Assembly: GCA_946625925.1 (NCBI GenBank)
Contig: CAMOTP010000001.1
Location: 2,770 to 66,769, forward strand
Direction: 5' to 3'
Source of the DNA: an uncultured Alphaproteobacteria bacterium
GTDB lineage: Bacteria; Pseudomonadota; Alphaproteobacteria; Rs-D84
Length of the DNA: 64,000 nt
Shown: positions 35,232-36,969 of the stretch, piece after piece
Layout of the letters: each line of letters begins with the position of its first letter
How positions within the stretch are numbered: position 1 is the stretch's first letter
The notes under the pieces: model-generated
The model's input: only the letters and a program-made list of their open reading frames with translations
What the model was told of the DNA's origin: nothing
The model's database searches: none
Made by a program: the position numbers and the translations under genes

Positions 35232-35294
35232 ATAAATCTTCGGTTGTGTGGATTTAACGCCAGGTGGCTGACCCGTATGTGGAACGCGCACATT
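35232..35294 (+). pseudogene. degenerate duplicate of the rlmE 5' end
   Basis: ~63 nt aligns at ~80% identity to rlmE codons 10-30 at 36343..36406; the translated copy carries stops. Confidence 0.6.
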
Positions 35295-35351
35295 ATGTTC
35301 CAGAGTATTTTGGTGGCACGCGTTGAAGAAACAAAATAAAAGGAGTGAAAA

Positions 35352-35702
35352 ATGTCTAAATTTTTGAAAGAAAAATGGAATAATGTTCGTGCCACAAAAC
35401 AAGCAAAAAAAGATGCGATATCGGAAATAAGCGTATTGTCGAGTACAGAATACGATGATGTCTGTATCCAAGATGTTATACAAACTGAACTGATGCAGCG
35501 GAACCCTGGTAATACAGAAATACCATTAGCATTGAGAAAATATTGCAAACATTTTGATGAAAAGCGCGTATGTGATAATGTGGATTGCCCTATGCATGAT
35601 AAAAATGAGCAATATATTGCAACACGTTTAGAATATAAACGGGCGCGAGGTGAATTTTTCAATATTCTATTTCATGGTCGTAAAAATTACTTTGATAAAT
35701 GA
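35352..35702 (+). CDS. hypothetical small protein (Cys/His-containing)
   Basis: 116-aa ORF between the rlmE-fragment duplicate and rlmE; CDNVDCPMHD segment. Confidence 0.4.
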   Translation: MSKFLKEKWNNVRATKQAKKDAISEISVLSSTEYDDVCIQDVIQTELMQRNPGNTEIPLALRKYCKHFDEKRVCDNVDCPMHDKNEQYIATRLEYKRARGEFFNILFHGRKNYFDK

Positions 35703-35740
35703 TAAAAAGCGGGTATATTAGGGGTGTAGAGGAATAAAAT

Positions 35741-35980
35741 ATGGCCGAAAAGTTGGTTGATATATCATCGGTTGATCCTGTGTATAATAAAAAGGGCACC
35801 AAAATTATTGGTTGGAAGTTCAGTGCAACATACATAATTATGATACCTATGACGCGGCCTAGTAAGTTATGTTTTTATTCAACCAGGGTTCAAGAATATA
35901 GTTTTTGTAATCTTTTTGGTTTGGGATACACATTGGCGCAAAAGGTACGAGATAGAAAATTGGCAGAAGTGCAGAGGTAA
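35741..35980 (+). CDS. hypothetical small protein
   Basis: 79-aa ORF; no features. Confidence 0.25.
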   Translation: MAEKLVDISSVDPVYNKKGTKIIGWKFSATYIIMIPMTRPSKLCFYSTRVQEYSFCNLFGLGYTLAQKVRDRKLAEVQR

Positions 35981-35981
35981 T

Positions 35982-36326
35982 ATGATGAAAAGACGAAAAG
36001 CTCAACCCGTTCAAGTATCACAATGTAATCCTGTTTATATTAACGGAAAGTTGAAATATTGGAATTTGTCTGTGGAATATTTAGGTGATTTGCGTTTGCC
36101 AAATCAACAGTTTTTACCGCGTGATTTTGGTGAATATGGTGTCGTTTTAAATCCTGTTATTTCTGTGCGTAAATTGCGTTATGTTAATACTGTAAAATAT
36201 GATAATAATACTGGAAATACAAAATTGACTTACGTTTTTCGTGACGGTCTTTTTGGGCGTGGTGCGGAAAAAGCATGGCAATTAAGAATATGGATGTTGG
36301 CGAGAATCAATGAAAATATTAAATAA
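35982..36326 (+). CDS. hypothetical small protein
   Basis: Start MMKRRKAQPV; overlaps rlmE start by 17 nt. Confidence 0.4.
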   Translation: MMKRRKAQPVQVSQCNPVYINGKLKYWNLSVEYLGDLRLPNQQFLPRDFGEYGVVLNPVISVRKLRYVNTVKYDNNTGNTKLTYVFRDGLFGRGAEKAWQLRIWMLARINENIK

Positions 36327-36969
36327 AAAAATTGCTGCACATAAATCTTCGGCTGATTGGATTCGTCGTCAGGCGGCTGATCCTTATGTTGAACGTGCAC
36401 ATCGTGATGGATATCGTGCACGTGCTGCATATAAACTGATTGAAATGAACGACAGATTCCATTTTTTGAAAAATGGTCAAGTTGTTGTTGATTTGGGGGC
36501 GGCACCGGGGTCTTGGTCACAATATATTGCACGTGATTTTCCAAAATCTAGGATATTTGCTATGGATTTGTTGGAAATTACCCCAATTAATAATGTGGAA
36601 TTTTATCAGGGTGATTTTACGACTGATGCCGCTTTGCAGTGGTTGGAATCTAAATTAAATTTGCCACATGATGTTGAAGGTTGCGGCACCGCGGATGTCG
36701 TTGTTTCTGATATGGCGCCAAATACTGTTGGACATAAAAAGACAGATCATTTGCGTCAAATGGTGTTGTTGGAATATGCATTTGATTTTGCGGTACGCGC
36801 ATTAAAGGTCGGTGGGACATTTGTCGCAAAATCTTTTACAGGTGGCACAACAAATGATTTGTTAAAGCAAATAAAAGAAAGATTTGAAAATGTACATCAT
36901 ATAAAACCACCTGCGTCTCGCAAAGATTCTGTTGAAATGTTTATTGTTGCCACCGGATTCAAAGGGTAG
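36310..36969 (+). CDS. rlmE: 23S rRNA (uridine2552-2'-O)-methyltransferase RlmE/FtsJ
   Basis: [21 protein letters not shown], catalytic K-D-K-E arrangement; 219 aa. Confidence 0.85.
   Translation: [219 protein letters not shown]

Follow-up and report, generated by a model that had tools for sequence, protein, structure and literature searches.

Prophages can integrate into the end of a protein-coding gene and bring a substitute end, as lambdoid phage 21 and element e14 do in icd, and integration hotspots flanked by core genes typically hold mobile elements and defense islands, tens of kb in length. The displacement arrays of Rhs, contact-dependent inhibition (CDI) and type VI secretion system effector-immunity (T6SS-EI) loci, with their C-terminal displacement and orphan immunity arrays, have been proposed to arise via homology-facilitated illegitimate recombination (HFIR) (Kirchberger et al. 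2017, PMC5361080), for which that article cites work on natural transformation (de Vries & Wackernagel 2002; Prudhomme et al. 2002; Meier & Wackernagel 2003). Here we analyze a locus in a 64,000-nt stretch of DNA from an uncultured alphaproteobacterium of the order Rs-D84 (contig CAMOTP010000001.1, positions 2,770 to 66,769, forward strand; hereafter the window). In the window the 5′ end of rlmE, which encodes a 23S rRNA methyltransferase, is present twice, once in the working gene and once as a relic farther upstream, with three small open reading frames (ORFs) between the copies. We interpret the relic as probably the scar of an additive, homology-anchored illegitimate recombination event at a cassette hotspot. 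The interval concerned, between rlmE and the upstream gene for SRPM, a protein consisting of an Ffh/SRP54 M domain, is a cassette hotspot not described before and houses a new family of orphan proteins.

Pairwise alignment revealed a 62-nt direct repeat between 35232-35293 and rlmE 36341-36402 (50/62 identical, ungapped, 81%), bearing out the initial annotation of the window, which had reported a repeat of ~80% identity upstream of rlmE. The match is far above background: the next-best placements of the rlmE 62-mer in the window (G+C = 37.4%) reach 34/62 on the plus strand and 30/62 on the minus strand, and no longer repeat exists within 33.0-38.5 kb. The repeat does include rlmE codons ~10-30, as first described, and extends beyond them. 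When 35200-35340 is aligned with 36310-36450, the 62-nt repeat is preceded by a 12-nt gap and then by 18 identical bases, TGAAAATATTAAATAAAA, up to the start codon, for which rlmE uses ATG (36310) and the upstream copy GTG (35213). The full relic (35213-35293, plus strand) corresponds to the intact downstream copy within rlmE (36310-36402, plus strand), codons 1-31, and similarity stops exactly past the His31 codon. An rlmE nucleotide profile matches the relic in an nhmmer search (E = 1.3e-16).

The upstream copy had also been described as out of frame and carrying stops. It is out of frame solely relative to the ORF before it; it has no internal frameshift and follows a single frame colinear with rlmE, reading VKILNK, then a 12-nt in-frame deletion (codons 7-10/11), then 20 residues, with one stop codon only (TAA at 35255-35257). 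Nine codons of the ungapped part differ from those of the window's own rlmE. The relic has three Ala-to-Val (GCN to GTN) changes. Five of the nine differences are synonymous, as expected if the divergence arose largely between two working genes. The first 17 nt of the relic encode the last five codons and the stop (ENIK-stop) of the preceding gene, X, which overlaps the relic start the way the last of the three small ORFs overlaps the start of rlmE. The relic is followed on the plus strand by a spacer (35294-35351) that ends in the Shine-Dalgarno sequence of ORF1, AAGGAG. The coordinates of ORF1 (35352-35702), ORF2 (35741-35980) and ORF3 (35982-36326) are confirmed as reported, as is the overlap of ORF3 with rlmE, which amounts to 17 nt, so that ORF3 also ends in ENIK-stop.

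Contigs of the same species show the decay of the relic in progress. The exact RlmE protein is present on 14 metagenome contigs (contigs and related loci are designated L001 and so on). Seven of them, from other samples and other assemblers (L002-L006, L008 and L009), carry the same relic, the same 12-nt deletion and the same stop, with the relic truncated past ...CGCCAGGTGGC by a 383-nt deletion. This deletion, found in 7/8 informative conspecific contigs, takes the 3′ part of the relic and most of ORF1; it corresponds to window 35277-35660 versus L002 position 9343, and the join lies at CCAGGTGGC / (G)GCGAA, a short direct repeat. As most conspecific contigs carry this deletion, erosion of the relic is still ongoing. 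Together with the TAA stop and the 12-nt deletion, it supports the earlier view that the upstream copy decayed and the downstream copy is the functional gene start.

A scan with one genome per species yielded 80 related loci, all from alphaproteobacterial metagenome-assembled genomes and many named Candidatus Enterousia, a group within the order Rs-D84 whose genomes are mostly <1 Mb (PMC12306168); the gut bacterium of the window is itself a Candidatus Enterousia. The order uvrA, SRPM, rlmE is conserved in 80/80 of these loci. The gap between the SRPM stop and the rlmE start ranges from −1 to 1668 nt across the 80 species, is largest in the window species (1712 nt), and holds 0-4 small same-strand ORFs. 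In 28/80 species the gap is ≤20 nt, and two others, L015 and L021, have exactly the layout SRPM-X-rlmE, with the X stop overlapping the rlmE start. The proposal that the DNA between the copies is an insertion relative to a simpler state is upheld by this comparison. As in core-gene-flanked hotspots, a fixed interval between two conserved genes concentrates gain and loss genus-wide, probably through recombination in the flanks. Unlike them, the interval spans 0-1.7 kb and is occupied by one lineage-specific family of small proteins, and the genomes are <1 Mb (PMC12306168).

Most gap genes belong to that family: 62/80 non-nested gap ORFs form one phmmer-connected cluster, including X (34597-35229, plus strand, 210 aa, two domains, also matched by the family hidden Markov model (HMM)) and, with one domain each, ORF2 (plus strand, 79 aa; family HMM E = 7.7e-12) and ORF3 (plus strand, 114 aa; family HMM E = 9.7e-15). 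Members have one to three domains, and X and ORF3 match each other directly (BLASTP E = 1e-3). X, whose start overlaps the SRPM stop (ATAATG), has orthologs in L011, L015 and L021; ORF2 in L065 (62% identity) and L019 (58%); and ORF3 in L019 (60%) and L014 (50%). Other gap residents include a 212/213-aa family, which occurs in L019, L020 and more metagenome contigs, always in the SRPM-rlmE gap. The initial annotation had placed ORF1-3 in a single insertion. They are not one foreign element: ORF2, ORF3 and X belong to a gap-resident family distributed across the genus, and only ORF1, a Cys-rich orphan of 116 aa on the plus strand unrelated to this family, shows recent horizontal movement.

The gap genes have Shine-Dalgarno sequences and stop/start overlaps. 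No terminator-like site lies between them, promoter-like and terminator-like sites occur at the level of shuffled sequence, and Rfam gave no match near the feature. Between species, the ratio of nonsynonymous to synonymous divergence (dN/dS) is 0.03-0.06 for uvrA, SRPM and rlmE, compared with 0.5-0.65 for X, 0.23 for ORF1, 0.26-0.28 for ORF2 and 0.27 for ORF3, indicating that X and ORF1-3 are coding and under purifying selection and evolve much faster than their neighbors. A word-indexed search of 5.8 billion sequences returned 12 clusters of the gap family, and an exhaustive profile search of 1.84 billion representatives returned 61 clusters (at 50% identity) with E ≤ 1e-3. Two of these 61 matches, P0017 (1220 aa) and P0067 (608 aa), were rejected as repeat-driven on reading the sequences. 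X and ORF1-3 have no match in Pfam, PHROG, NCBIfam or PADLOC. The AlphaFold2 model of ORF3 (predicted local distance difference test score (pLDDT) 75, predicted template modeling score (pTM) 0.71) shows five strands and a long C-terminal helix, for which Foldseek found no significant match in PDB (best, SycT chaperone, E = 0.18, template modeling score 0.35) or BFVD (best E = 0.12). Outside the gap, a 109-aa ORF at 44771-45100, among ORFs without a Pfam match (~42.7-48.3 kb), matches the family HMM weakly (E = 6e-4) and may be a dispersed distant family member or a chance match.

Relics of the rlmE start recur at this locus. We searched for each species' own 19-nt rlmE start (≤2 mismatches) and found 10 occurrences in 29.9 kb of gaps and none in 899 kb of flanks, both strands searched. 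The species with relics in the gap are the window species, L011, L014, L042, L051, L052, L061, L064, L069 and L075. Two relics are longer, covering codons 1-31 in the window and 1-10 plus 41-77 in L011. In L051 and L091 a perfect 19-nt copy, ATGAAAATACTAAATAAAA, lies between the SRPM stop and ORF1. In L014 (MKITNKK...) and in L018/L089 (MKNKNK...) the next cassette apparently takes its start from the relic. The C-terminal NENIK-stop that is widespread in cassette proteins is the +2 frame of the rlmE start MKILNK. Relic end points vary by species (after ~codon 6-7, 31 or 77), and relic or repeat lengths range from 19 to ~230 nt.

Three further observations concern sequences in the gap. One cassette subtype begins with MKINWKKIF (ATGAAAATAAATTGGAAGAAAATT), resembling the rlmE start MKILNKKIA (ATGAAAATACTTAATAAGAAAATT), for example at L049 5693, L058 5690, L064 5608 and L033 3186, among others. 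Comparison of 5′ ends with the rlmE start gave a score ≥9 for 9/47 cassettes and 14/348 other genes, the cassettes not being phylogenetically independent; at most, this hints that rlmE starts were captured and became the N-termini of cassettes. In another Enterousia clade the rlmE start is duplicated together with its 19-nt upstream region, at L042 2438-2530, L060 5880-6000 and L064/L069/L075 ~5916-6000. The copies form a ~40-nt direct repeat around a GC-rich hairpin of 45-65 nt (TTCCGCAC...TGCGGAA), immediately 5′ of the true start; this hairpin may represent a small palindromic element, or else a leader structure that includes a short upstream ORF. Finally, a profile of SRPM 3′ ends gives a marginal nhmmer match (E = 4e-4) in the L061 gap at ~5939-5991, near rlmE, the only such match in the gaps, which may be a piece of the other flanking gene left stranded there.

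The junction is directly visible in the sister species L011. The relic there has lost 30 codons in frame between GCTGCA and GCAGCA, and its end, GCACGCGAATTT (rlmE codons 73-77), runs directly into the 3′-terminal ~80 nt of a 212/213-aa gap-cassette gene, joined at the GCGCGTGAATTT of that gene with a microhomology of 12/14 nt. The L011 relic differs from L011 rlmE at 4/111 nt, all synonymous, which fits two working alleles brought together recently. The L011 relic (5337-5480) is also an intact 47-codon ORF and is either very young or perhaps maintained. In the window, spacer bases 35323-35337 (TTGAAGAAACAAAAT) match the 212-aa gene of L020 exactly over 15 nt, just upstream of the L011 junction point. 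L019 has GCACAATATG ~43 nt further upstream, where the window relic ends GCACAT|TATG. As a lead, this suggests that the window junction arose by joining at a 5-nt GCACA microhomology and that DNA between two AAAAT repeats was then deleted. If the lead is right, the window and L011 junctions are different, and they would represent two events, or one that was later remodeled.

The relic looks like an allele other than that of the rlmE downstream of it. Over codons 12-31 it matches L021 and L012 rlmE at 53/60 positions, L015 at 52/60 and its own rlmE at 48/60. Its TAA stop is one step from the CAA (Gln19) of L021, L012 and L015, at a position where its own rlmE has CGT (Arg19), like L011 and L023. 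Codon 16 of the relic, GTG, is one step from the GCG of L021/L012/L015, and the corresponding GAT of its own rlmE is one step from the GAA of L011 and L023. On the uvrA tree the window groups with L011, L019 and L020, with L015 and L021 in another subclade. Since the relic is nearer to the rlmE of other species than to its own, the two copies look like two alleles joined by recombination, and the C-to-T changes and the deletion look like changes gained by the relic after that joining. Given the same pattern and the variable break points, we abandon the earlier reading of the repeat as target sequence duplicated by an insertion.

DNA at this locus also moves between species. Only two homolog clusters of ORF1 exist among the 5.8 billion sequences, with homologs in L011 (60% identity) and in L051/L091-type species (99% identity), which have the layout SRPM-ORF1-51 aa-rlmE. 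Residues C38, C65, C74, C79 and H82 of ORF1 are invariant, its sequence includes a CCCH-like motif, and its structure model is weak (pLDDT 61). The tract 35324-35744 is 96.4% identical to L091, compared with 81.0% for the uvrA-SRPM flank and 75.6% for the rlmE-AAK flank. Within the ORF1 coding part there are ~2 nt differences from L091 and a synonymous divergence (dS) of 0, against a uvrA dS > 1 for comparable species pairs; L011 ORF1 is at species-level divergence (dS 1.12). In the conspecific contigs with the 383-nt deletion, the remaining ORF1 stump is ~80% identical to window ORF1 beside identical adjoining DNA, indicating a recent transfer of ORF1 between the window strain and an L091-like species, in which the window strain was either the recipient, its own allele being overwritten, or the donor. 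Among ORF1-3, only ORF1 shows recent horizontal movement; ORF2 and ORF3 do not.

The repeat, the variation in gap length, the cassette family, the recurrence of relics, the ORF1 tract shared across species and the microhomology junction of L011 are all direct observations; from them we infer an order of events, a resident allele and a route of DNA entry as follows. The SRPM-rlmE gap is a hotspot of gain, loss and replacement of small cassette genes. DNA from related species would enter and integrate via the conserved flanks as homology, usually with a cassette swap as the outcome. An occasional illegitimate microhomology join inside the rlmE 5′ region would cause the incoming block, with its own rlmE start, to be added and not exchanged. 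In the window lineage, a SRPM-X-rlmE haplotype would have been joined to an ...-ORF1-ORF2-ORF3-rlmE haplotype, one end by homology and the other illegitimately, within rlmE after codon 31, through HFIR or an equivalent additive event. Both cassette sets would have been kept; one rlmE allele would have left its 5′ end stranded behind X, and the working start would come from the other. Apart from its first 17 nt, which form the end of X, the stranded piece would be functionless, and the rest has decayed through the stop, the 12-nt deletion and, in most strains, the 383-nt deletion.

We favor this reading because species without the insertion are known (the layout of L015 and L021, and a gap of ≤20 nt in 28/80 species), because the relic looks like a different allele, because relics are recurrent and locus-specific, because the L011 junction is visible and ORF1 moves between species, and because the searches described below found no mobile-element machinery and decay is still going on. 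Several points weigh against it. The reading presumes natural competence or another route of DNA uptake in these uncultured bacteria. The foreign-allele assignment draws on 60 nt, a 5-match difference and two diagnostic codons, and at one site in the first 19 nt (TTA vs CTA) the relic agrees with its own gene and not with L015/L021. The origin of the spacer is indicated by one 15-nt match (blastn-short E = 0.035) and a possible 5-nt GCACA, with whole-spacer alignment not above shuffled controls, and the spacer has no significant similarity to the L011 spacer, SRPM 3′ ends or other gaps. We found no haplotype that carries the partner sequence of the window junction exactly, and the contexts of three homolog clusters of the 212-aa gene, all in the SRPM-rlmE gap, do not include the donor layout of that gene followed by ORF1. 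The break points and spacers of the window and L011 differ, yet both relics lie between X and ORF1.

The locus resembles HFIR in combining one homologous end with one microhomology join, as seen at the L011 junction (12/14 nt), with foreign DNA added beside an anchor. It differs from HFIR in transformation in that the process is read here from sequence alone and in that the window junction has at most a possible 5-nt microhomology. Like the Rhs, CDI and T6SS-EI arrays, it has a conserved anchor gene beside a variable set of small genes (uvrA-SRPM-gap-rlmE in all loci examined), incoming modules are added rather than swapped and displace older material, and fragments of the anchor gene are left among the cassettes (10 relics, the long ones in the window and L011). 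Cassette phylogeny is discordant with the flanks, here for ORF1 only, and a dedicated recombinase is lacking, again as in those arrays. Unlike in those arrays, the anchor is the 5′ end of a housekeeping rRNA methyltransferase gene and not a toxin core, the cassettes accumulate upstream and not downstream of it, and the arrays are short (0-4 genes). As no Pfam, NCBIfam, PADLOC, PHROG or fold match ties the cargo to toxin or immunity functions, we do not class the locus with the HFIR displacement arrays, and the analogy is in mechanism only.

The best-surviving alternative, although an unlikely one, is a Campbell-type event, in which a circle carrying ORF1 (or ORF1-ORF2-ORF3) and a 5′ piece of rlmE integrates by a single homologous crossover in rlmE and direct repeats result; such a circle could arise, for instance, when the DNA between two rlmE-start repeats of another genome is excised. 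The insert is indeed bounded by directly repeated rlmE 5′ sequence, the flanking repeat in L051/L091 is perfect over its 19 nt, ORF1 has moved between species, and the spread of repeat lengths is as expected of a homology-driven and not an enzyme-defined duplication. One crossover within a repeat of 19 nt, between sequences 75-81% identical overall, would, however, be very inefficient. The left junction in L011 is an illegitimate join to the 3′ end of another gene with no clean repeat boundary, ~30-58 nt of unrelated spacer follows the relic in the window, and neither a circular form nor an excision product was observed.

A duplication in situ is still less probable than a Campbell-type event. 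Here unequal crossing-over or replication slippage would have produced a tandem copy of a segment from somewhere upstream up to rlmE codon 31 or beyond, after which the copied cassettes diverged into ORF1-3 and the rlmE fragment decayed. X, ORF2 and ORF3 are paralogs of one family, a member whose stop overlaps the start codon precedes both repeat copies, and multi-domain fusions and arrays elsewhere show local expansion of the family. The ages do not agree, however: the rlmE copies retain 81% DNA identity, whereas the C-terminal half of X and ORF3 cannot be aligned as DNA and share ~26% protein identity over 96 residues, so the X/ORF3 pair and the rlmE copies cannot be of the same age. ORF1 is unrelated to anything upstream, and a relic nearer to other species' rlmE than to its own is not what a local duplication would leave. 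The common ENIK-stop of X and ORF3 was considered as evidence of duplication and rejected, being forced by the +2 frame of MKILNK.

Lower again in probability, and in our view quite improbable, is a remnant of a site-specific integrative element (a phage, an integrative and conjugative element or a miniature element) that targeted the rlmE 5′ end, brought a replacement gene start and has since lost its integrase. The rlmE 5′ end has been struck repeatedly, and the hairpin between two rlmE starts in L042, L060, L064, L069 and L075 would suit such an element. The case-by-case differences in break point argue against a defined attachment site, and the insert is just 1.1 kb and consists mainly of genes native to the gap. 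No Pfam match to an integrase or transposase exists among genes called within 10 kb on either side, where the matches are Lactamase_B, MTS, Peptidase_M23, TspO, Dus, RodZ, UvrA, SRP_SPB, FtsJ, AA_kinase and a PBP. The search for homologs of the small ORFs in mobile elements, proposed earlier, gave no match in PHROG or PADLOC; tblastn queries with X, ORF1 and ORF3 matched none of 50,697 phage records, and blastn of 35200-36420 matched none of 72,556 plasmids. No inverted repeats bracket or follow any cassette in 33000-38500, and no terminal inverted repeats were found. The likeness to phage 21 and e14 in icd is that a gene end is duplicated, that one copy keeps the gene intact and that the displaced copy differs mainly at synonymous sites, as another allele would. 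The differences from icd are the lack of a phage or integrase, the size of the insert, the use of the 5′ and not the 3′ end, and break points that are not fixed.

Integron arrays offer a further comparison. Like integron cassettes, the gap genes are small, promoterless and on the same strand, vary in number and order, and are added at one end beside a fixed site, with a short repeated sequence at several cassette boundaries. Unlike integrons, the locus has no IntI integrase among the genes called within 10 kb either side, no attC-like imperfect inverted repeats in 33000-38500 and no Rfam match, and its boundary repeat is a piece of the neighbor's coding start with variable break points.

An assembly or binning artefact, in which reads of two co-occurring Enterousia strains were joined into a false duplication, deserves mention as all data are metagenome assemblies of a genus with many co-occurring species, but it is effectively refuted, because the independent metagenome contig L001 has the same structure (12 differences in 20,660 positions) and the relic with its stop and 12-nt deletion recurs in the seven contigs from different samples and assemblers.

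The genes flanking the gap are conserved to different degrees. SRPM (34085-34597, plus strand, 170 aa; Pfam SRP_SPB E = 1.4e-21) matches the TIGR00959 ffh model over positions 304-427 only; it is a stand-alone Ffh M (signal-peptide-binding) domain protein without the NG GTPase domain, directly 3′ of uvrA, and this position is kept in 80 Enterousia species. The functional rlmE (36310-36969, plus strand) encodes an FtsJ-type 23S rRNA 2′-O-methyltransferase (Pfam FtsJ E = 6.5e-57). Its product is 100% identical in 10 independent contigs, scores 192.8 bits against PF01728 (cut-off 24.1) with 181/181 profile positions covered, and matches TIGR00438 (188.8 bits, cut-off 300.15) and NF008390 (180.3 bits, cut-off 269) over the full length, under the curated cut-offs. 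The gene after rlmE (36976-37725) encodes a 249-aa aspartate-kinase catalytic domain (AA_kinase) without ACT regulatory domains and adjoins rlmE in a subset of species only. An internal patch of this gene falls to 60-79% identity in L003, L005 and L007 despite 100% identical RlmE, and looks like a second recombination tract. Beyond it, 37694-39277 and 39292-40854 are two tandem paralogs of ~500 aa, 52% identical, with a weak BspA-type leucine-rich-repeat signal; their copy number and presence vary in relatives, with matches only in L011, L019, L020, L051 and L065.

A broader interpretation, which we put forward tentatively, is that the SRPM-rlmE interval may be a recombinase-free cassette array in which the rlmE translation start (ATGAAAATAYTAAATAAAA and the next codons) serves as reusable docking homology. 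Each capture would bring its own rlmE start and strand the old one, and stranded starts would become stop/start overlap signals, even start codons (L014, L018/L089), and sites for interspecies shuffling. The cargo would then be a genus-specific, fast-evolving family (dN/dS 0.3-0.65, compared with 0.03-0.06 in the flanks) kept for antagonistic or host-related interaction in these gut symbionts with genomes <1 Mb.

For genome annotation, the 81-nt rlmE fragment should be treated as a pseudogene scar, and the C-terminal ENIK of many gap proteins as an artefact of overlap with the rlmE start. The stranded gene starts and the microhomology junction are readable fossils of DNA joining without a dedicated recombinase. 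The gap genes form a new, unannotated protein family, essentially confined to the SRPM-rlmE interval, that evolves 5-15 times faster than its neighbors by dN/dS and is a candidate for a role in conflict or in host interaction within this uncultured gut lineage. Genomes <1 Mb tend to be regarded as static and prone to gene loss; here small genes are actively gained, lost and exchanged across species at a single fixed address.

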